64,000 bases of DNA from Candidatus Saccharimonadota bacterium (GTDB lineage: Bacteria; Patescibacteriota; Saccharimonadia; Saccharimonadales; 2-12-FULL-41-12), in NCBI GenBank assembly GCA_022842995.1, contig JALHOM010000005.1, positions 6,503-70,502 of the forward strand, in the 5' to 3' direction. Positions 1,954-64,000 of the stretch are shown piece by piece. Positions within the stretch are counted from its first letter, which is position 1. Each line of letters opens with the position of its first letter. A program made the translations under genes and the position numbers. Below the pieces are notes generated by a model. That model was not told the origin of the DNA. It did not search any database and saw only the letters and a list, made by a program, of their open reading frames with translations.

Positions 1954-2943
1954 ATGATGACGCTTGCGCTTGCGTTAACTCTTATAATGATGGTTTTTAG
2001 GGCTGCTGCAGTCCAAATATCCAGACTGTCGCTACATGACCTAAAACGTCGTTCTTCATCTGGAGATACAGTTGCTCGGCGATTATTTTTAGTAGCGCGT
2101 TATCATGTTTTGGCGCCGGGTTATCTTAATGCCGTGGCAGTTGTGATTTTTGTGTTTTTGGCTGCTTACATTTCAGCTAATTCGCCATTGACCGCCTCCA
2201 TGCTTTGGATCGGGCTTATGATCGGCGCCTTTTATGGTGCTGCGCAGCTGGCGCGCTTCATGGTGCGACCGTTGGTTCTCGTGGCTCCACAGTATGCCTC
2301 GGTGATTATTTTTACCCGTAAATATCTCTCTCCTCTGAGGGCAGTCTGGCAACGTTACGCTGGATCGTCAGGTTCGGTAAAGGTTTATGGTCGAGAAGAT
2401 CTCGTAGATTTACTCCAGGCAGCGGGCAAGGCAAAAAACGGTGGACTTACCAAAAAAGAGGTCAAAATGTCTGTAGCCGCCTTGACGTTTAAAGATAAGC
2501 TGGTGCGAGATGTCATGACGCCACGGAAAGTGGTTAAATTCGTTGAAGTCGATCAGCAGGTCAGCACAGTATTGCTCAATGAGCTTCATGAAAGTGGCTT
2601 TTCGCGCTTTCCGGTCACGAGTGGAAACGTTGATGTTATTGTCGGCACACTTTATTTGAAAGATCTTGTAGAACAAAAACGCGAGGGCAAAGTCTCTACG
2701 CTTATGAGTCCGGATTATTTTGAAATAGCTCCCGATAAAAATTTGTTCGAGGCTCTCGGGTTGTTTCTTAAGCGACGTCATCATCTATTTGTCGTTCGGA
2801 ATGAATTTTCAGAAGTCGTTGGCGTAATAACCATCGAAGATGTGCTCGAGCAGCTGGTTGATGCTGAAATTATCGATGAATCAGACGTTCATGAAGATAT
2901 GCGTGAACTAGCTCTCGAAGCGGAACCAAGTATACGGAAATAG
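1954..2943 (+). CDS. CNNM/DUF21 transmembrane domain + CBS-pair protein (HlyC/CorC family transporter, lacks the CorC_HlyC C-terminal domain)
   Basis: Four N-terminal TM helices followed by a tandem CBS pair (VRDVMTPR...; VVGVITIEDVLEQL). A TATAAT at 1921-1926 favours the ATG at 1954 over the ORF start at 1912. Confidence 0.75.
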   Translation: MMTLALALTLIMMVFRAAAVQISRLSLHDLKRRSSSGDTVARRLFLVARYHVLAPGYLNAVAVVIFVFLAAYISANSPLTASMLWIGLMIGAFYGAAQLARFMVRPLVLVAPQYASVIIFTRKYLSPLRAVWQRYAGSSGSVKVYGREDLVDLLQAAGKAKNGGLTKKEVKMSVAALTFKDKLVRDVMTPRKVVKFVEVDQQVSTVLLNELHESGFSRFPVTSGNVDVIVGTLYLKDLVEQKREGKVSTLMSPDYFEIAPDKNLFEALGLFLKRRHHLFVVRNEFSEVVGVITIEDVLEQLVDAEIIDESDVHEDMRELALEAEPSIRK

Positions 2944-2955
2944 CCGGGCTCGTCG

Positions 2956-4785
2956 TTATTGTTTGATCTGTAGATTGAGTAGTTCTCTCGGGATGTCTAT
3001 TGTCCGGGTTGTGTTTACGCTGTCTCCCGGTAGGCCGATGCAGGTTGTTGCAATTTGCTGAGCAGTCCAGCCAGAAGCGATTGCTTTACTGAGTTCACGG
3101 AGGTTGGCGGTGTATCGATATTGTCCTGACCTGGTGAGTTGATAATAACGAGTCGAAGGCACAGTAGAGCTGTCGCATTGATAGGCCCGGGTTGATCCGA
3201 GAATTGTGCCACCTCCAAATTGATATCTCAGGAGGGTTGAGTGTGGGCTTCGTATTCGATTCAACATGGTGCTGCTACGAGTAATTCCAAAGCCCAGGGT
3301 GTCGCTGCGAGGAGAGATGGCGCTGAGTCCTGTTTTATTACTATTTTCAAATAACGCACCGATCAGTTCTTCCCAGGAAGCAGTTGGTTGCGAGGCTTTG
3401 GCAAGCCCGAGCAGGCCGCTAAAGTATGGAGTAGCAAATGATGTGCCGCTGACGGTAGCGTAGGCGCTCGAGAGGTTGGATGAGCTATAGGTTGGCGAAA
3501 CCATGGATTGTCCAGGAGCGAGAATGTCGAGATTGGCCCCGTAGCTACTAAACGTTGCAGGGGTTCCGCTTGGTGAAATGGCGCCGACCGCCAGTACCTC
3601 TGGGTAGTTGGCGGGGAAAGCTATGCAGTTACAGCCATCATTTCCGGCTGCGGCGACAACTATCGACCCGCGATCTAGAGCGTAAAGGATAGCCAGTCGC
3701 ATATAGGGGTCGTCCGCCGATGTGCCAAGACTGATACTGATAATATCTGCTCCCTGATCGGCGGCGTAACGCACAGCGTTAGATACAGTATAGGTGTCAC
3801 CGTAGCTGTCGTCGTTTAAGGCTTGCAATGGGAGAATTTTGGCGTACCAGTTGACGCCAGCTATGCCGACGCCATTATTGCCAGTAGCACCCAGTATTCC
3901 AGTAACGGTAGTACCGTGAGCTGTCCCGCTTCCCGTAGGATTGGTTTCTCCGGCTTGTGCACTGGCATCGAAGTTCGCGAAGTCCCAACCTCGCCAGTCG
4001 TCGATATAGCCGTTACCGTCATCGTCAATATTATTGCAGTTTTTGTTGAGCGGCAATCCGAGGCTGGTGCAGTTACGCTTGGAGGGGTTTTGGCGAGAAG
4101 TCGCTCCAGATTCGTTATCTACAATGCCGTCGTAGTTATCGTCAATATTATTGCAGCTTTGGTTTAGCGCAAGTCCCCGGTCGGTGCAGTTAAGGTCGTT
4201 TGCGCCTTCGCTTAACGCTATTCCGAGCTCTCCGTTATTCGTTGCCCAGCGGTTCGTGAATTCTTGGTGGTTTAGTGCAAAGCCGGTATCAATAACAGCG
4301 ATTTTTACTTGAGACGCAAAACTGGTTGCATCCCAGACGCTCGTCATGCCCATAGGGGTGACCCACCACTGATTGTAGAGCGGGTCGTTCGGTACCAAAA
4401 AAGTTTCATAAACTCGGTTTGGATAACTTTGCCCACTAGGGGTGATAATTTCTCGTGCACTGACGCTCATGCCGGCATAGGAAGTTGGTGGATTTTGAAG
4501 TATTTCTGGGTCGGAAGCTGCATTTTTATTGGCGAGTGTTGGTAACTTTGAATCAGCAGTGACCTCGTTTTTTACGGTAGCAGTAGGTATATTTTTAGTG
4601 GTCGATAAGACGCCAAGCGGATCTGATGTAGAGGGCAGGGGCAGGGGCAGGACTGATATTGCAACCGGCACAATACTTGGAGGGGTGGTTTCTGGGGTAG
4701 GCGCTGTTACATTTTGGAGCTGTAACAAGGTGGCTGCTACAACAAAGAGCGCGACAATGTGAGGAATATGGTGGATTTTTTTCAT
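2956..4785 (-). CDS. secreted subtilisin-like serine protease (peptidase S8)
   Basis: Signal peptide. Catalytic triad motifs are VKIAVIDTGF (Asp), TAHGTTVTG (His) and SGTSFATPYFSG (Ser). A duplicated Cys-flanked NCNNIDD-x-DG-x-D calcium-binding-like insert lies between the Asp and His. Confidence 0.85.
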   Translation of the reverse strand: MKKIHHIPHIVALFVVAATLLQLQNVTAPTPETTPPSIVPVAISVLPLPLPSTSDPLGVLSTTKNIPTATVKNEVTADSKLPTLANKNAASDPEILQNPPTSYAGMSVSAREIITPSGQSYPNRVYETFLVPNDPLYNQWWVTPMGMTSVWDATSFASQVKIAVIDTGFALNHQEFTNRWATNNGELGIALSEGANDLNCTDRGLALNQSCNNIDDNYDGIVDNESGATSRQNPSKRNCTSLGLPLNKNCNNIDDDGNGYIDDWRGWDFANFDASAQAGETNPTGSGTAHGTTVTGILGATGNNGVGIAGVNWYAKILPLQALNDDSYGDTYTVSNAVRYAADQGADIISISLGTSADDPYMRLAILYALDRGSIVVAAAGNDGCNCIAFPANYPEVLAVGAISPSGTPATFSSYGANLDILAPGQSMVSPTYSSSNLSSAYATVSGTSFATPYFSGLLGLAKASQPTASWEELIGALFENSNKTGLSAISPRSDTLGFGITRSSTMLNRIRSPHSTLLRYQFGGGTILGSTRAYQCDSSTVPSTRYYQLTRSGQYRYTANLRELSKAIASGWTAQQIATTCIGLPGDSVNTTRTIDIPRELLNLQIKQ

Positions 4786-4926
4786 TTTTGTTTTTAGATT
4801 TACTAAAGTTACAATACCAAATATTTAGAGAAATGTCAATATTATTGAAAGCGAAAGAGGTCTAACTGTGGTACAATGAATAGCAATTGCAAAAAACATT
4901 TTACGAGAGAGGAAGAGATTGTCGGC

Positions 4927-27424: not shown

Positions 27425-27778
27425 TGGTGGGGGCGGCTGGACTTGAACCAGCGACCAATCGGTTATGCGTACCACTACAGCTTTCGCTGCCTTTTTCAAG
27501 TTTGCTGGTCTGGACTGTCTCTTCATCCGCTATGTATAACGGAGCCTGCCATTCAGTCTCTACACCTTCCCGTGTTTTTTACGCGACGGGCTTGGCTCGG
27601 GATTACCATATTAAAGGCTTCCCCGAATTTGACAGGATATACTTACTAGTTACCCGGTAAGCAGCCCTTTTTTATGCGACATGTCTAAGGCTGAAATCTG
27701 ATAATAAAATCAGTGCAGAATTTAGATTTAGTTACATGTAAATTGAGCCGACTGCTCTAACCACTGAGCTACGCCCCC
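27425..27778 (-). tRNA. tRNA(CAU), ileX/tRNA-Ile2-like (or elongator Met), interrupted by a group I intron in the anticodon loop
   Basis: Joined exons give the 76-nt sequence GGGGGCGTAGCTCAGTGGTTAGAGCAGTCGGCT|CATAACCGATTGGTCGCTGGTTCAAGTCCAGCCGCCCCCACCA. This is a full cloverleaf with a G1-C72 pair (not initiator-like), anticodon CAT and an encoded CCA. The D-loop and TTGGTCGCTGGTTCAAGTCCAGC match E. coli ileX as I remember it. Confidence 0.85.
27468..27745 (-). ncRNA. group I intron, subgroup IC3 (Azoarcus/Anabaena tRNA-intron type), 278 nt, no ORF
   Basis: The minus-sense sequence contains GTCAAATTCGGGGAAGCCT, TATGGTAATCCCGAGCCAAGC and GAAGGTGTAGAGACTGAATGGCAGG. These are near-identical to core strings of the Azoarcus tRNA-Ile intron as recalled. 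P3 CCTG/CAGG, P7 GACTG/CAGTC and a P9 CAGC-GAAA-GCTG hairpin are present. The 5' exon ends in U33 and the intron ends in G. Confidence 0.85.
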
Positions 27779-60133: not shown

Positions 60134-61360
60134 TTACTCAGCCTGAGCTTTTGCAGGTTGTGTTAACGAATATACGGCGGCGCTATGCGCACGTACAAGC
60201 ATCTGGCGAACCGCTTCGGCTGTCTCTTCGTCTGAAAGCATGGTGTTATTTAGTATTTGATCAGGTACTTTAAGACCTAGTACTTTAGTTATTAGTTCAG
60301 CTTTCCGTTGTAGTATTCGATCAATTGTTACCGTGTCGTTATCGGCGACGAGAGTGATGTTATCTGGATATTGGATAGGTTCTCGTTGGCTGTTATTTTT
60401 ATAGAACTCTAAGAATTGGTTCCATAGATCCTGTTCGGGCACTTCTGAAAGTTGGACAAGGGCGTCAAAATGAGATTTGAGTTTTTGGGCGCCCATGCCG
60501 CTGACGTGGTGTAACTCATATTTGTACTCGTGCTCGCCCATCCGGGACTCAGTTGCGTTAATCCATGACTCTAAGCTTGTTCCTGCAAGTCGCAGGGCAT
60601 TTTCTCTTATCCTGGCAATTCTATTGGATCTTTCTACTAAGACTTCTTCGCTTTCGGGTATGCGTAAGAACTCTACGTTTTCTTCACTTAACATTTGCGC
60701 GCCAAGGACTCTCGGGTCTTGATTTCTAATTTGGTAACGCTCGGACACAATTCTTTTAGCTAATTTCATTTTTGCGATATGATATTCTTTTTGAGCAAAA
60801 ATATCTTCAGAAAGCATTTGAGCAATAGCGAGTAGTTCTTCTACCGGTAATTCTTCGCCTGTTGGATCTTGATCGGTACGGTATGTATCTAGATCACTTA
60901 AAGCGGACCTGGCGTTTAATACGCGCTCAGTCGCGTCATTGGTCTGCTTGGTTATTTTTAGTCGTTCCTGGATCTCTTCCCCTTGAAGAAACTTTTGAGT
61001 CACTTCAGTCAGTAAGATAGATTCGGCAGAATTAGGGTTAGTATAAGGGCTTCCTTCAGCTTCGGCTGAGGCAACTATTCTGATTCCGTATACCATGTTA
61101 ATGGTTCGATTGACAGCTTCAGACTTTGAGAGTTCGTTAAGGCTAGACAATACTCCTGGTAAATCTTTGTTCCGTACTTTTTGAAGTGCCATTAAAATGA
61201 ATTGATCATCGACTTGATTTGGGTCCATCAAGCCTACGACCTCAAGGATATCTCGGGCAAAAGTATAATCGTCATCTGCGCCACTAGGTGCATCGAAGTC
61301 TGCACGGTAAGAGAGCGCAGTTGAGGCAGTATCGGGATTTAAACGCCATGTCTCGTTCAT
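60134..61360 (-). CDS. hypothetical helical protein
   Basis: 408-aa ORF with no recognisable motif. Confidence 0.5.
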   Translation of the reverse strand: MNETWRLNPDTASTALSYRADFDAPSGADDDYTFARDILEVVGLMDPNQVDDQFILMALQKVRNKDLPGVLSSLNELSKSEAVNRTINMVYGIRIVASAEAEGSPYTNPNSAESILLTEVTQKFLQGEEIQERLKITKQTNDATERVLNARSALSDLDTYRTDQDPTGEELPVEELLAIAQMLSEDIFAQKEYHIAKMKLAKRIVSERYQIRNQDPRVLGAQMLSEENVEFLRIPESEEVLVERSNRIARIRENALRLAGTSLESWINATESRMGEHEYKYELHHVSGMGAQKLKSHFDALVQLSEVPEQDLWNQFLEFYKNNSQREPIQYPDNITLVADNDTVTIDRILQRKAELITKVLGLKVPDQILNNTMLSDEETAEAVRQMLVRAHSAAVYSLTQPAKAQAE

Positions 61361-61477
61361 TAAATATTATTATACCATATTTCTCTACGTTAAAGAAATA
61401 TTTGTCAAATAGATTAATGAATGTGTCTTAGGGGAAATTGAGGGCAGGGAAATGCACGTTGTTCTTGGCCTGAAAGC

Positions 61478-61514
61478 GCCAGGGCAAACGCACGACTACA
61501 GCCATGCTTGGAAT
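61478..61514. repeat. partial copy (37 nt) of element X, copy X1
   Basis: GCCAGGGCAAACGCACGACTACAGCCATGCTTGGAAT matches 63320-63356 and 61691-61727 with a few substitutions. Confidence 0.85.
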
Positions 61515-61520
61515 GTATTG

Positions 61521-61659
61521 TAGTGGCCAGGACTCGCCCACGTTCCGCGGTCACTTTCAGCGACCCCGAGATTTCGTTCAATCAAGCACAGTTTGATGAA
61601 GAAAGTCTCCTTGCAATGAGCCCACTGGGCTTTTTCACCTGGGACCTTTTAGCGTCCTG
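61521..61659 (-). repeat. element Y copy A: degenerate tRNA-fMet 3' portion with a ~101-nt insert in the T-loop
   Basis: It shares GGCCAGGACTCG-CCCACGTTCCGCGG and AGCCCACTGGGCTTTTTCA-CCTGGGACCTTTTAGCGTCCTG with copies B and C. The middle of the insert is unrelated. Confidence 0.85.
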
Positions 61660-61690
61660 GAGCCGAGACATAAGCGCATGTTCAAAAAAA

Positions 61691-61727
61691 GCCAGGGCAA
61701 GCGCACGACTGCAACCATGCTCGGAAT
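61691..61727. repeat. partial copy (37 nt) of element X, copy X2
   Basis: GCCAGGGCAAGCGCACGACTGCAACCATGCTCGGAAT. It is followed at 61733-61762 by GGGGCCAGGAATATAGCTTCGCGCCGG, which combines a tRNA acceptor/T-stem fragment with the motif also present at 63803-63820. Confidence 0.85.
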
Positions 61728-62019
61728 GCATAGAAGGGGCCAGGAATATAGCTTCGCGCCGGCTCGTCTAGATTAATTTAAAAAGGTAGGACGAGTCGGG
61801 CTCTGCTTATAATTTGCACGATGCAAATTATCGAACCTTTTTGGCTCAAGCCCTAGACCCAAAATACCAAGAAAAAACAGCCACACGAGGTGACTGTCTT
61901 TTCTTGGTAGATTACGTGCAATCGAATTGAAACCTAATCTCAGCTTAGTTATTGAAGTGCCGGGCTATATGAATTTCATGAGTTTGAAAGAATTTGCTGT
62001 ATTGAGTGTTTTGCTATAA

Positions 62020-63096
62020 CTATTTGATTTTGAAACCGACTCTTATTTTACCTATGCCTTTTTCGGCGCTTACAGCATCATTAACAGTAATTGCGTCGGC
62101 TCGCGTAGGGGCATCAATCCCAAGGGTAGTTTCAATAGTGCTCCCAGCCGCAACGTCTGGTTGGAAGGGCTGGCCTGGCATGGGATAAATACCGCCTGCC
62201 TCTGAATATGTTCCTTGCTGCGAAGCGGAGCCTATATTCGACAGCCGAAACGGCTTATCCGTAGAATTTTCAATTCTTAATGTAGTTATTACAAATATTC
62301 CTACATACGCTTTTTCATTGCCGAGTGTCGGACTAAACTCTGTCTTTAATATGGTTACCTTAACCCCATCTACTTCTGCCGTAGAGCCGAGCGGAAGACG
62401 TTTGTCTTGTGTGGGCGTCGGTGAAATTGGCTCAGGTGAAATTATTTGTTGCGCATTATTGTGTGATAGTAAAGCAGAGATTCCACCAAATACTACGGTA
62501 GTCACAATGACAGTAATAATTAAGTATGTCTTCTTAAGCTTGACACTAAATTTCAATAGAAGCGTATAAATAACAAAGAAAAAGAGCAATGAGACAATTA
62601 GGAACACCGTATCCTTGACGAAGTGCATTAAAATTCCCGGTATCAAAAATAGCAAGTGAGCGATTATTATATTTCGTTTTTGCACCCAAGTCATGTTAAA
62701 TAGCCGCAATATTCCAAAGACCAGAAGCGGTGCTAGCGTTATGAAAAGTAGAGGTAAAATAAATAGTTCGAGCAGCAGCGAATCGAATATGCCAAATCGG
62801 TACACGAAGAACGAAGAGCCAAAAATTATTTTCAGTAAGGCAACAACCAAAGTACTGAAGATCGCCAACATATATAGATTTTGTGGTTTGAATGCCGTAA
62901 TCTCTTTTGATGCCCTATTGTCATTTTCAAATGGTTTAAATGATTCATGTATATGTTCTTCACTCCATCCATGATTGCGAAAATGATCTTGTAGTTGATT
63001 AATAGGATAGCCATGCCGCAGATGCTCTTTGATGTATTCATGGATACTATGTTTATTATCTAACATGTCACTGATTATAACAGCCAGGAACTTCAT
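62020..63096 (-). CDS. polytopic membrane protein with C-terminal extracellular beta-rich domain (DUF4352-like)
   Basis: ORF 62020..63267. Its first 57 codons are read from the tRNA-derived repeat, and the same 36 aa also head the spurious ORF 63311..63589. The real start is taken as ATG 63096 (MKFLAVIISD...). It has five or six TM helices, then GSTAEVDGVKVTILKTEF...FVITTLRIENSTDKPF. The gene looks AT-rich by eye. Confidence 0.55.
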   Translation of the reverse strand: MKFLAVIISDMLDNKHSIHEYIKEHLRHGYPINQLQDHFRNHGWSEEHIHESFKPFENDNRASKEITAFKPQNLYMLAIFSTLVVALLKIIFGSSFFVYRFGIFDSLLLELFILPLLFITLAPLLVFGILRLFNMTWVQKRNIIIAHLLFLIPGILMHFVKDTVFLIVSLLFFFVIYTLLLKFSVKLKKTYLIITVIVTTVVFGGISALLSHNNAQQIISPEPISPTPTQDKRLPLGSTAEVDGVKVTILKTEFSPTLGNEKAYVGIFVITTLRIENSTDKPFRLSNIGSASQQGTYSEAGGIYPMPGQPFQPDVAAGSTIETTLGIDAPTRADAITVNDAVSAEKGIGKIRVGFKIK

Positions 63097-63157
63097 CCTG
63101 TCGAATATGATTCGGACTAAAAAAGAATCACTTAGATAGCATCTATGTAATATCGAA

Positions 63158-63286
63158 ATGGTAGCGGGGCCAGGACTCGCCCACGTTCCGCGGGCCCGCC
63201 ACAACATCTTTGCAAAGCCAGTTTGCAAGAGTTGATGGCCTTGCAAAAGCCCACTGGGCTTTCTCACCTGGGACCTTTAGCGTCCT
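63158..63286 (-). repeat. element Y copy B: tRNA-fMet 3' portion (position ~44 to CCA) with an 87-nt insert in the T-loop
   Basis: Minus sense: CAGGACGCTAAAGGTCCCAGG-T-[GAGAAAGCCCAGTGGGCTTTTGCAAGG...GGCGGGCCCGCGGAACGTGGG]-CGAGTCCTGGCCCCGCTACCA. The flanks are identical to the genuine tRNA at 63670-63700. Confidence 0.9.
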
Positions 63287-63318
63287 GAAAATGGAATCTA
63301 GGGATATGATTTATAAAA

Positions 63319-63439
63319 AGGGCCAGGGCAAACGCACGGCTACAGCCATGCTCGGAATAAATTCCTGCGCGTGGCTTTGCCGACCGAACCGTGTGACCTT
63401 CGCCAGCAAGCTGGCGGGTCCCAGGTTCAAGCCCTGGCC
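63319..63439. repeat. element X (full copy): 121-nt hairpin-rich element closed by a perfect 10-bp stem GGGCCAGGGC/GCCCTGGCCC
   Basis: Positions 63416-63439 are an inverted, uninterrupted copy of the tRNA-fMet T-arm/acceptor junction (22 of 24 nt match 63677-63700). Internal hairpins are CGCCAG-CTTG-CTGGCG, GGAA-TTTA-TTCC and GCATGGC-TGTA-GCCGTGC (minus sense). Confidence 0.9.
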
Positions 63440-63441
63440 CA

Positions 63442-63472
63442 TAAAGAAAAAAATCCCAGCAAATGCTGAGAT
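63442..63472 (-). terminator. Rho-independent terminator downstream of Y copy C
   Basis: Minus sense: AATCTCAGC-ATTT-GCTGGGATT followed by TTTTTTTCTTT. Confidence 0.7.
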
Positions 63473-63479
63473 TCTTTTC

Positions 63480-63607
63480 TTGGTAGCGGGGCCAGGACTC
63501 GCCCACGTTCCGCGGGCCCGCCACAACATCTTTGCAAAGCCAGTTTGCAAGAGTTGATGGCCTTGCAAAAGCCCACTGGGCTTTCTCACCTGGGACCTTT
63601 AGCGTCC
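63480..63607 (-). repeat. element Y copy C (identical to copy B over ~127 nt; 322-bp period)
   Basis: By eye, 63480-63606 is identical to 63158-63284. The copies diverge beyond GCGTCC. Confidence 0.9.
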
Positions 63608-63633
63608 CAGCCTCGAGTCCGGCATCACCGACC

Positions 63634-63663
63634 AAGTAAAAGACCCCATCTTGCGATGAGGTC
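63634..63663 (-). terminator. Rho-independent terminator of tRNA-fMet
   Basis: Minus sense: GGACCTCATC-GCAA-GATGGGGTCT (GNRA loop, two G-U pairs) followed by TTTTACTT. It starts 6 nt after the CCA end. Confidence 0.65.
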
Positions 63664-63669
63664 CATTAC

Positions 63670-63744
63670 TTGGTAGCGGGGCCAGGACTCGAACCTGGGA
63701 CCTTGTGGTTATGAGCCACACGAGCTGCCACTGCTCTACCCCGC
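63670..63744 (-). tRNA. tRNA-fMet (initiator-like, anticodon CAU), CCA encoded
   Basis: CGCGGGGTAGAGCAGTGGCAGCTCGTGTGGCTCATAACCACAAGGTCCCAGGTTCGAGTCCTGGCCCCGCTACCA. The 5' CGCGGGG...GAGCAG resembles the E. coli initiator and positions 1:72 are unpaired (C:U). The anticodon stem has only two consecutive G-C pairs instead of three. Confidence 0.85.
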
Positions 63745-63762
63745 GATATATATTGTGTACTT

Positions 63763-63789
63763 GATTATAGCTGATTGGGCGATTACACA
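63763..63789 (-). promoter_or_regulatory. candidate sigma70-type promoter of tRNA-fMet
   Basis: Minus sense: TTGTGT (63784-63789), a 15-nt spacer, then TATAAT (63763-63768), 18 nt upstream of tRNA position 1. The spacer is short, so confidence is low. Confidence 0.3.
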
Positions 63790-63795
63790 ACCAGC

Positions 63796-63922
63796 ATTGT
63801 GGTTATATTGCTTCGCGCCGGGATCACTATTTCTATAAGGGAAGGTGACCTCGGGCTCGGCATATATTCTCCTTGATCAGTCGAATATGAGCCGCTCGCG
63901 AGCTGCCACTGCTCTACCCCGC
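63796..63922 (-). pseudogene. tRNA-fMet-derived fragment: positions 1-37 and 38-46 separated by a ~79-nt insert in the anticodon loop; T-arm and acceptor 3' strand missing
   Basis: Minus sense: CGCGGGGTAGAGCAGTGGCAGCTCG (identical to the tRNA for 26 nt, including the upstream ATATAT), then CGAGCGGCTCATA-[insert]-ATAACCACAA. The similarity then fades. Confidence 0.7.
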
Positions 63923-64000
63923 GATATATTAATTTTTTGTCAAAATGGAAAAGCTATTAATCAACTACGGTTAATTATAACAGATGAGGCGACGGTTTTA

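Follow-up and report, generated by a model that had tools for sequence, protein, structure and literature searches.

The initiator tRNA gene of a Candidatus Saccharimonadota bacterium (contig JALHOM010000005.1 of assembly GCA_022842995.1, positions 6,503 to 70,502 of the forward strand, 64,000 nt in all and referred to as the window) is surrounded by non-coding repeats that look like pieces of tRNA, and the question that this locus raises is what these repeats are. A preliminary description, made from the letters alone, had distinguished two kinds of unit, X and Y. What it had observed is confirmed, whereas its interpretation is partly supported by the present analysis. Coordinates are those of the window, and the region 64000-61400 is described on the minus strand, that is, in tRNA sense. 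We found that Y belongs to a conserved, structured and strand-specific family that sits at a fixed T-loop position of partial copies of the neighboring tRNA. We therefore tentatively regard the locus, with somewhat less than even confidence, as an array of spare partial tRNA-fMet copies in which one loop, as a rule the T-loop, accommodates a folded non-coding module, probably an RNA, and which has been shuffled by recombination.

The Y units of the window

The features on which this reading depends are the following (R1 and R2 are the covariance models of the Saccharibacteria and the Burkholderiales type of Y, respectively):

63671..63745, minus strand: intact initiator-type tRNA-Met(CAT), T-loop GGTTCGAGTCC (ARAGORN; Rfam tRNA, 62.2 bits)
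63481..63607, minus strand: Y-C, composed of tRNA positions 44-54 (AAGGTCCCAGGT), the Y insert and tRNA positions 56/57 to CCA (R1, 114.7 bits at 63488-63598)
63159..63285, minus strand: Y-B, with a CCA end and the cargo gene directly after it (R1, 114.7 bits at 63166-63276)
61523..61662, minus strand: Y-A, a diverged Y (R1, 84.3 bits at 61523-61647)

Both ARAGORN and Rfam returned one tRNA-Met(CAT), as had been claimed, one base away from the position originally given. It shows the C1 mismatch that is typical of initiator tRNAs, and its match (RF00005, 63674-63745, minus strand, 62.2 bits) was the only Rfam tRNA match in the array. Since Y, X and the 5' tRNA fragment described below had no Rfam tRNA match even at E ≤ 10, they are fragments and not tRNA genes. 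Y-B and Y-C are identical over 127 of 127 nt and repeat with an exact period of 322 nt, just as first reported. The earlier statement that Y-A keeps only the element ends also held: it shares with the other two the 5' block (97% of 31 nt) and the 3' block (26/26 nt), while its middle, including the P2-P3 sequence, is different and its 3' flank stops after GAGTCCTGGCC. Each of the two conserved Y strings has three copies in the window, with none expected from shuffles, and neither string counts nor R1 revealed a further Y copy in the 64 kb.

Distribution of the Y family

Scanning one genome for each species (about 185,000 representatives) with 20 nt of the Y 3' block yielded 13 loci, and a scan of metagenomes with a 21-nt word added 30 more; being exact-word scans, they find only copies with the canonical last hairpin and under-sample the variants. 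Five of the matches (L005, L010, L014, L023 and L029), all within coding DNA, were discarded as chance. The word matches lay in Saccharibacteria and Burkholderiales genomes and in 25 metagenome contigs, so that the search for conserved strings suggested in the preliminary description did recover relatives, and in two phyla; the canonical word is carried by 11 of the approximately 185,000 species representatives. The Saccharibacteria relatives also agree with the Patescibacteria supposed in the preliminary description. In the Saccharibacteria type, the word closes an insert of about 95 nt in a partial tRNA copy beside tRNA-fMet, tRNA-Pro(TGG), tRNA-Trp or a tRNA-Val paralogue. In the Burkholderiales type, found on contigs that include Lautropia, Zeimonas and metagenome-assembled genomes of Burkholderiaceae and Oxalobacteraceae, it closes an element of about 100 nt located 5-40 nt downstream of tRNA-Leu(CAG) or tRNA-Asp(GTC). 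The host tRNA identities are thus Leu-CAG, Asp-GTC, fMet, Pro, Trp and Val.

When plasmids were searched with BLAST, variant copies, with the last hairpin altered by paired substitutions, came to light on the chromids of Cupriavidus metallidurans CH34 and Cupriavidus sp. EM10, both at sites that bear no feature in the gene table of the collection:

NC_007974.2, about 1,180,827-1,180,967: Y copy of Cupriavidus metallidurans CH34, just downstream of tRNA-Leu-CAG

These chromids were the only result of the plasmid search, a match on a Neorhizobium plasmid being the 3' end of a tRNA-Leu and not a copy of Y. The phage collection, the viral contigs and all complete E. coli genomes contained no match to Y or to the Burkholderiales element, and a text search of the accessible literature by sequence word, T-loop core and topic found no description of the element. 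Y had been called tRNA-fragment-derived in the preliminary description; this has to be revised, because the insert is a conserved structured element with relatives in a second phylum, and only its flanks copy the neighboring tRNA, a point that had not been noticed before.

The flanks are copies of the neighboring tRNA

In 17 loci, the 20 nt that follow the module are the 3' end of the neighboring tRNA from the T-loop on, with 0-1 mismatch, and this parent tRNA lies 100-190 nt upstream of the module (2.2 kb upstream in L009). In Burkholderiales, the identity often continues through the trailer and terminator (57 nt in L004, 26 nt in L006), and the trailer and terminator after Y match the tRNA of the same genome and differ between genomes. 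On the other side, the left flanks carry variable-loop bases that match the local tRNA at 12 of 12 positions in the window, L007 and L035 (AAGGTCCCAGGT in the window, GAGGTCGGGGGT in L007); since these positions are identical though they have no pairing role, the left flanks of the Saccharibacteria type are tRNA copies by descent. A second Y copy in L043, detected by the covariance model only, resides in a copy of tRNA-Pro(CGG) with the T-loop TTCAAGTCC, and its right junction reads CAAGTCC instead of CGAGTCC. The GAGTCC of the conserved 27-mer is therefore local tRNA sequence and does not belong to the module, for the junction follows the T-loop of its own tRNA. The module proper stops at the last hairpin, the closing C is T-loop position 56, and about one T-loop nucleotide is replaced (GGT|Y|C-GAGTCC).

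Orientation is equally constant: every R1 or R2 match below about 0.01 is on the same strand as the nearest tRNA. The array L041 (60-805, minus strand) has a period of about 150 nt and the order tRNA-Asp, Y, tRNA-Asp, Y, Y, Y; three of its Y copies have the last-hairpin loop AGGAU in place of GGAAC. As a separate observation, some Burkholderiales copies (L031, L039, L015, L012 and L008) have an additional hairpin rich in GC (e.g. GGCGTGCAACGCACGCC) in the tRNA-Leu-derived tail, where it separates GAGTCC from the acceptor 3' strand.

Identity that begins at a fixed point calls to mind a guide RNA. According to such an explanation, Y would be a scaffold that ends where about 20 nt identical to the tRNA gene start, like the TnpB omega-RNA or the homing guide of Cas12k, and TTC in the tRNA would be the adjacent motif that is lacking from the element's own copy. 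A structured scaffold, a hairpin and a target-identical 3' sequence do follow each other in this order beside a tRNA-linked insertion site, the bases 5' of the match are GGTTC in the tRNA and GTGGGC in the element, and cargo insertions are found downstream of the tRNA. Nevertheless, we consider a guide RNA very improbable, since no TnpB, IscB or Cas12 gene occurs near the copies, either in the window open reading frames (ORFs) or among the families listed for 11 loci (the best 25 of 70), no Rfam omega-RNA matched, the would-be guide is base-paired in cis with an antisense copy, and the identity often extends by 26-57 nt into trailer and terminator, as duplication would explain more readily.

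The fold of the module is conserved

Two alignments were examined, A3 with 12 distinct copies of the Saccharibacteria type and A1 with 21 Burkholderiales copies, the latter almost gap-free; covariation was hence counted on related sequences that had partly been chosen by the shared hairpin. In A3, the fold is a four-way junction closed by the tRNA T-stem, with arms P1, P2-P2b-P3 and P4 and the junction strands GAGA, YGCAAGG and CGG; for the Y-C insert of the window, a four-way junction of P1, P2-P3 and P4 is predicted as well. In this alignment, 92.5% of the cells are paired, 24 of the 35 pairs are changed on both sides, and none of 500 shuffles reaches the covariation score, while sliding the partners by 1-3 columns reduces pairing to 32-46%. 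In A1, an upstream hairpin (hp1, loop CUGC) precedes a helix formed by an internal strand with the tRNA-derived GAGUCCNC, which encloses the hairpins hp2 (loop UGCA-like) and hp3, so that this T-helix, hp2 and hp3 make up a three-way junction. Pairing amounts to 86.7% of the cells overall and to 92.1% without the acceptor helix (helix 1, 47.5% paired), 22 of 38 pairs are doubly changed with pairing kept, and again none of 500 shuffles reaches the score. The hairpins hp1, hp2 and hp3 are 98%, 97% and 100% paired, with changes on both sides in 7 of 9, 6 of 8 and 2 of 6 pairs, respectively; hp3 has a compensatory change in Cupriavidus and an invariant G.U. The covariance model and the search for compensatory changes that the preliminary description had proposed thus gave strong covariation, contrary to what it had foreseen for randomly decayed attachment (att) scars.

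Both types share the last hairpin, GCCCGC-loop-GUGGGC with an invariant G.U. Moreover, P1 of the Saccharibacteria type resembles hp2 of the Burkholderiales type in sequence (GGATTGCC...GGCAATCC), and each model detects the other type: R1 scores 30-44 bits on Burkholderiales copies and R2 20-33 bits on Saccharibacteria copies, the window copies being found by R2 with 25.7 bits (E = 0.003). Because of this likeness and mutual detection, we treat the two types as one family, in which the Saccharibacteria members have an extra arm. The window copies show all features that define it, namely NNNCGC-loop-GUGNNN with the G.U, followed by C/GAGUCC, in tRNA sense and beside the parent tRNA. G.U pairs outnumber A.C combinations by 36 to 4 in A1 and by 25 to 11 in A3, and this excess, together with the constant orientation relative to the tRNA, assigns the fold under selection to the tRNA-sense strand.

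In both types, an antisense copy of the tRNA 3' part precedes the module, and the tRNA-derived tail can thus pair with it into a long duplex. In Burkholderiales, this antisense part is GCCCAGA-[hp1]-GAGGACTCGAA, the reverse complement of TTCGAGTCCTC-T-TCTGGGC, whereas in Saccharibacteria it is a full inverted acceptor and T-arm ahead of a short hairpin. The loop of the last hairpin varies (GGAAC, AGGAU, GCAUG, CGGAG and UGAAA), and a second allele of its stem, GGUCGC/GUGACC, occurs in L043 (1263-1373, minus strand; Saccharibacteria type) and in L044 (3030-3136; Cupriavidus). In Y-A, a variant hairpin, GGTCGCTGAAAGTGACC, is joined to a truncated canonical one at 61545-61575, and this fusion looks as if recombination had happened at the hairpin.

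Several narrower proposals for the fold were rejected: (i) a boxB/nut-like hairpin in a loop-specific sense, as the loop of the conserved hairpin varies, (ii) kissing of the loop GGAAC with the T-loop GUUC, which the Cupriavidus loop variant contradicts, (iii) a hammerhead or other small ribozyme, whose core motifs are absent and for which there was no Rfam match, and (iv) a split tRNA assembled from the 5' fragment and Y, for which only four anticodon-stem pairs are possible and no supporting relatives were found.

A conserved fold next to a tRNA might simply denote a non-mobile host RNA, i.e. a tRNA-like small RNA with an acceptor/T minihelix and CCA, in which the T-loop is replaced by a recognition domain. 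It would have been kept beside its parent tRNA and homogenized by gene conversion, and the Saccharibacteria arrays would be mere duplications. Such an RNA would resemble the tRNA-like domain of tmRNA and YrlA in its T-stem, CCA end, tRNA-sense strand and, in some copies, acceptor-like stem, and by analogy with YrlA (PMC4201824) it would probably be processed like a tRNA. The tRNA-Leu type, with full 7-bp acceptor pairing (GCCCAGA/TCTGGGC) and ACCA in seven loci, suits this explanation, as do the internal T-helix strand that follows the tRNA identity with pairing kept (GAGGAC for Leu, GGGAC or GGGC for Asp), the same position across Burkholderiales genera, and the lack of an intervening terminator within the tRNA-Asp arrays. 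However, tmRNA and YrlA retain the T-loop that the module replaces in Y, there is no tag reading frame, and neither Rfam family matched. The acceptor 5' strand is missing from most tRNA-Asp and Saccharibacteria copies (cf. the pairing of helix 1 above), many copies are truncated or chimeric, at least six tRNA identities carry the same module, which would require repeated placement, and the patchy occurrence of the canonical word would be odd for an ancient housekeeping RNA. On balance, a host RNA of this kind appears rather improbable to us.

Composition of the array and further inserts

The remaining features of the array, in the tRNA-sense order, are as follows:

63887..63923, minus strand: 5' tRNA-fMet copy from position 1 to the anticodon CAT (repeat analysis and reading of the letters)
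63805..63886, minus strand: anticodon-loop insert of the 5' copy, 82 nt after CAT (fold z = -1.8)
63641..63664, minus strand: tRNA terminator hairpin, center of a 47-nt imperfect palindrome (hairpin and inverted-repeat analysis)
63604..63636, minus strand: decayed copy of the acceptor and T-arm (tRNA 3' part) in inverted orientation, directly ahead of Y-C (74% complementary)
63441..63480, minus strand: terminator-like hairpin after Y-C, TCTCAGCATTTGCTGGGA and then a T run (read by eye)
63320..63440, minus strand: X, 121 nt: an intact T-arm in inverted orientation, then the hairpin CGCCAGCTTGCTGGCG, and last a direct T-arm copy in which another insert follows GGTTCGG
62020..63096, minus strand: cargo gene between ...CTACCA and CTACCAAG; its 358-aa product has several hydrophobic stretches
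61865..61912, minus strand: tRNA 3'-end remnant CTACCAAG within a 20-bp terminator-like hairpin (hairpin and inverted-repeat analysis)
61745..61862, minus strand: inverted T-arm piece GGGTCTAGGGCTTGAGCC, then the Z unit, GGTTCGA, TAATTTGC...GCGAAGCTATAT, TCCTGGCCCC
61686..61744, minus strand: partial X, a copy of the X 3' part with G.U-type changes (83% identity to X)
61473..61522, minus strand: partial X (3' part) abutting Y-A (repeat analysis)

As had been reported, the 5' fragment is interrupted in its anticodon loop. Its first 26 nt and five upstream nt are identical to the intact tRNA-fMet (repeat spacing 178 nt, on the upstream side), while its anticodon-stem strand (GCGAGCGG) deviates from the intact gene. 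The right end of its insert, CCGGCGCGAAGCAATAT, is similar to that of the Z insert; after it come AACCACAA and TTGTG in inverted orientation. Upstream, the flank shows synteny with L035, a close relative in which a plain tRNA, without the 5' fragment, occupies this place. An 11-mer, TCATATTCGAC, common to the regions of 63886 and 63110, is at chance level for 2.5 kb and was disregarded.

X, whose length of 121 nt agrees with the first account, is strongly folded (-70.3 kcal/mol, z = -5.1 versus shuffled controls), and its 3' part is present three times in the window. It is laid out like a Y unit of the Saccharibacteria type, with an inverted T-arm, a hairpin and a direct T-arm copy, and differs in the insert. 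The Saccharibacteria contig L026 contains a homologue whose hairpins are kept by paired changes (GGAAT/ATTCC versus GAAGC/GCTTC) and which finishes in a tRNA 3' end with CCA; a third insert type adjoins it. The "rearranged X" of the preliminary description turned out to consist of two parts, another T-loop insert, named Z (about 61745-61829), and a partial X after it. Z inserts start with GGTTCGA and then TAAT in the window, L001 and L009, and in the window and L001 their right end, GCGAAGNNATAT, stands ahead of the T-stem 3' strand, the L001 copy ending in GCGAAGTAATAT. The anticodon-loop insert of the window 5' fragment has this same right end (GCGAAGNNATAT). X and Z are further insert types in the same T-loop region, which had likewise escaped the earlier reading.

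Direct and inverted tRNA pieces do coexist in the array. Terminator-like hairpins were seen after the tRNA, after the CTACCAAG remnant and, by eye, after Y-C, the last one being 78% similar to the tRNA trailer; Y-B has none and X has none of its own, which narrows the claim that each module has its own terminator. Nor does each module keep a CCA end, for Y-B has one, Y-A has lost it and X is without it.

Cargo and neighboring genes

The AT-rich membrane-protein gene between Y-B and the CTACCAAG remnant was correctly recognized at the outset: the kilobase that carries it has a GC content of 39.7%, compared with about 45% in the flanking window. The protein had no Pfam match, and its C-terminal 160 aa match phrog_806, a family of unknown function (E = 1.6e-7). 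As at related loci, the gene forms a cargo cassette, here with a CTACCA duplication at its borders. An inverted repeat of 24 nt (83% complementary) links the start of the cargo gene, 62991-63014, with 63945-63968 upstream of the 5' fragment.

Related loci were examined as stretches of 8-12 kb. In L034, the order is tRNA-Trp, terminator-2, two genes for a reverse transcriptase (RT) and a HEPN protein, CTGCCA, terminator-1 and Y, whereas its sister contig L042 reads tRNA-Trp, terminator-1, Y, 3' copy, terminator-2 and lacks both cargo genes. The L034 cargo (2343-4914) encodes a 604-aa UG13-type RT (PADLOC RT_UG13a, 1e-68) and a Cthe_2314-like HEPN protein, and L009 has ASCH and GNAT-ASCH genes at the corresponding place. 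Thus, in Saccharibacteria, the Y units and the analogous X and Z inserts, with their tRNA-derived repeats, delimit small cargo modules that carry no integrase.

No integrase, recombinase or transposase domain was found in the nine ORFs nearest the array (54.7-63.1 kb), in line with the earlier remark that no recombinase is nearby; they encode a methyltransferase, an aldo-keto reductase, a NUDIX protein and unknowns. The 408-aa neighbor (60134-61360) was considered as a hidden integrase and dismissed, as it had no Pfam, PHROG or PADLOC match and is acidic and probably helical. Similarly, among the families listed (the best 25 of 70) for the 52 ORFs located up to 4.5 kb from the element at 11 Saccharibacteria loci, there was no recombinase and no family that recurs beyond housekeeping neighbors.

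Comparison with known RNAs and mobile elements

Against Rfam 15, applied to 17 loci besides the window, no family matched the units at its gathering score in the window and 13 loci, and none accounted for X or Y at E ≤ 10 in 61000-64000 or at E ≤ 1 in four loci; apart from tRNAs, the low-score matches were chance microRNA or leader hits, all far under their gathering scores. ARAGORN found no tmRNA in the window, and no Rfam tmRNA match appeared at E ≤ 10 in 61000-64000. Group I and II introns likewise gave no match in 61000-64000, while the same scan detected a real group I intron at 27487-27697. The inability of the preliminary description to assign the units to a known RNA was hence well founded. 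Excision of Y would leave GGT-CGAGTCC, a T-loop one base short, and all Y-bearing copies are without one tRNA half.

The T-loop and the anticodon loop are classical targets of integrases, as exemplified by mycobacteriophage Ms6 in the T-loop of tRNA-Ala (PMC1762012), and arrays of partial tRNAs mark serial integrations in tycheposon islands (10.1101/2020.12.28.424599). The array shares with such integrative elements the tRNA-gene site, the junction in the T-loop (in the anticodon loop for the window 5' fragment), direct repeats of tRNA 3' ends in serial order, and small variable cargo that includes defense-type genes (RT and HEPN, GNAT/ASCH and membrane-protein genes between units). The units could accordingly be decayed attL/attR scars, with the inserts as leftovers of island arms after internal deletion. 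We regard this as the least probable of the explanations, and a highly improbable one. As was pointed out from the beginning, the array differs from simple 3'-end att duplications in that every partial tRNA copy holds an internal insert; for Y, this is a structured, cross-phylum insert of 55-95 nt with tRNA sequence on both sides and no duplicated core. Double changes that keep pairing, in 24 of 35 pairs of A3 and 22 of 38 of A1, are unexpected of deletion leftovers, the same module stands at tRNA-Leu in several Burkholderiales genera without any island, and neither integrase genes nor fragments of them were found near the units (nine window ORFs and the best 25 of 70 families of the 11 loci), nor was Y found in phage or viral collections.

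MITEs (miniature inverted-repeat transposable elements), REPINs and the IS200/IS605-derived PATEs are, like Y, short, non-coding, hairpin-rich, multicopy and located at "safe" sites, and Y, like them, would need a factor in trans. Unlike them, Y has no terminal inverted repeats of its own, since the inverted repeats at its borders are the tRNA T-stem and vary with the host tRNA. It also causes no target duplication (GGT|...|CGAGTCC), and its copies were seen at one tRNA-loop position beside the parent tRNA, with no further copy in the 64-kb window. As to an IS200/IS605 end or a TnpB omega-RNA, the first and last hairpins are unrelated in sequence, no Rfam match was obtained and no large ORF is adjacent; autonomous copies may exist elsewhere.

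The main alternative to our reading, and one that the other three follow in likelihood, is a site that acts as folded single-stranded DNA. Integron attC, the attP of CTX phage and REP or IS200-IS605 ends are the sites to compare. An unlinked recombinase of the tyrosine or HUH type would act on an integron-like platform built on the tRNA gene; the palindrome of antisense and sense tRNA 3' parts, together with the Y hairpins, would fold within one strand, and the units would be attachment sites of cassettes. Y indeed resembles attC and the CTX-phage attP(+) in its conserved ends, its variable yet paired middle, its strand specificity and its tolerance of G.T, in bounding promoterless cassettes, and in having an inverted and a direct copy that can fold into a mimic of a double-stranded target. 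Small integrase-free cargo is bounded by units that stand in a different order in L034 and L042, the same loop region accommodates several insert families (X, Y and Z), and the hairpin alleles GCCCGC/GUGGGC and GGUCGC/GUGACC occur in both phyla, with Y-A fusing the two. We nonetheless consider it unlikely. The attC boxes R''/L''-L'/R' (RYYYAAC...GTTRRRY) are absent, the element is anchored to tRNA, and its three- or four-way junction with conserved junction bases is unlike the single imperfect hairpin of attC or the simple REP and IS200 hairpins. No IntI or Xer gene, or any other recombinase, is linked to Y in any of the roughly 40 loci, as judged from nine window ORFs and, at the 8-12-kb loci, the families listed (the best 25 of 70), the Burkholderiales copies are stable and cargo-free between tRNA-Leu and the same host gene in several genera, and the phage, viral and plasmid collections contained none except on chromids.

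How the arrays may have formed

Two arrangements recur among the loci. In the commoner one, the intact tRNA and its terminator are followed by the antisense arm, a partial sense copy with Y up to CCA, and a terminator. In the upstream arrangement (L040 and the second copy of L043), a full 5' tRNA copy with Y in its T-loop lies behind a tRNA-type upstream region and is followed by a few T-stem bases, an inverted T-arm piece, a -10-like box and the intact tRNA.

Under the reading that we favor, the module would have been inserted several times independently into redundant tRNA copies, at the same T-loop position, since six or more tRNA identities carry it; only pseudo-copies would carry it, because insertion into the sole functional copy of a tRNA would be lethal. 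A single crossover between the tRNA-derived flank and the live tRNA would then produce the downstream arrangement if it occurred to the right of Y and the upstream arrangement if to the left; the window 5' fragment looks like the latter with a different insert, in the anticodon loop. The same recombination may have led to the duplication of Y-B and Y-C, to the permutation of modules and to the capture of small cargo. Such crossovers would account for the Y-B/Y-C duplication, the L041 array, the identity of trailers within a genome and the permutation between L034 and L042. Finally, to judge from the sequences, the module may be made as RNA by read-through or by co-transcription with the tRNA, and its fold preserved by selection. 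Its use as RNA is suggested by the following: (i) the internal strand of the Burkholderiales T-helix changes with the tRNA identity while pairing is kept, (ii) several copies lie inside tRNA operons or right behind tRNA upstream regions, and (iii) the junction strands are conserved.

A number of observations weigh against this reading. In the tRNA-Leu type, the tRNA is separated from Y by a terminator, with no space left for a promoter, so that expression of Y would need read-through. Among the loci, there is no pair of filled and empty sites of otherwise identical sequence for Y itself, and mobility is hence deduced from distribution alone. The two types have different left junctions (Saccharibacteria, after T54; Burkholderiales, after TCGAA in inverted or direct orientation), only some Burkholderiales copies possess the acceptor-like 5' strand, and many copies are truncated, as expected of selfish or decaying DNA. 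Covariation that tolerates G.T is also known for folded single-stranded DNA sites such as attC and REP and does not prove an RNA. The identity of the 27-mer across phyla is partly an effect of ascertainment, because the word search needs the canonical hairpin, and a single unlinked integrase near the 11 loci could lie outside the families listed (the best 25 of 70).

It is conceivable, although doubtful, that Y, and by analogy X and Z, represent a new class of element, a small structured RNA domain that resides only in the loops of tRNA pseudo-copies, is homed to one T-loop position by an unlinked factor and has tRNA-derived flanks that make tRNA genes platforms of recombination, where cassettes are put together and reshuffled with no integrase involved, or else a tRNA-mimic RNA with a conserved protein partner common to Saccharibacteria and Burkholderiales. 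Should our reading be correct, tRNA genes would host an overlooked passenger, a conserved folded module in the T-loops of spare copies, present in two distant phyla of which one has tiny genomes with few mobile elements. A structured RNA (or folded-DNA) family without a curated relative would be gained, and the module would explain the integrase-free build-up of small defense and membrane-protein cassettes beside tRNA genes. The units resemble tRNA fragments and terminators and are currently unannotated; the copy beside tRNA-Leu(CAG) in Cupriavidus metallidurans CH34 would provide a culturable test system.

A split tRNA gene elsewhere in the window

Apart from the array, the window contains at 27440-27775 (minus strand) a further tRNA with the anticodon CAT that was not called by ARAGORN. 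Its exons, GGGGGCGTAGCTCAGTGGTTAGAGCAGTCGGCTCA and TAACCGATTGGTCGCTGGTTCAAGTCCAGCCGCCCCCACCA, are split in the anticodon loop by the group I intron at 27487-27697, which Rfam recognized with 68 bits.

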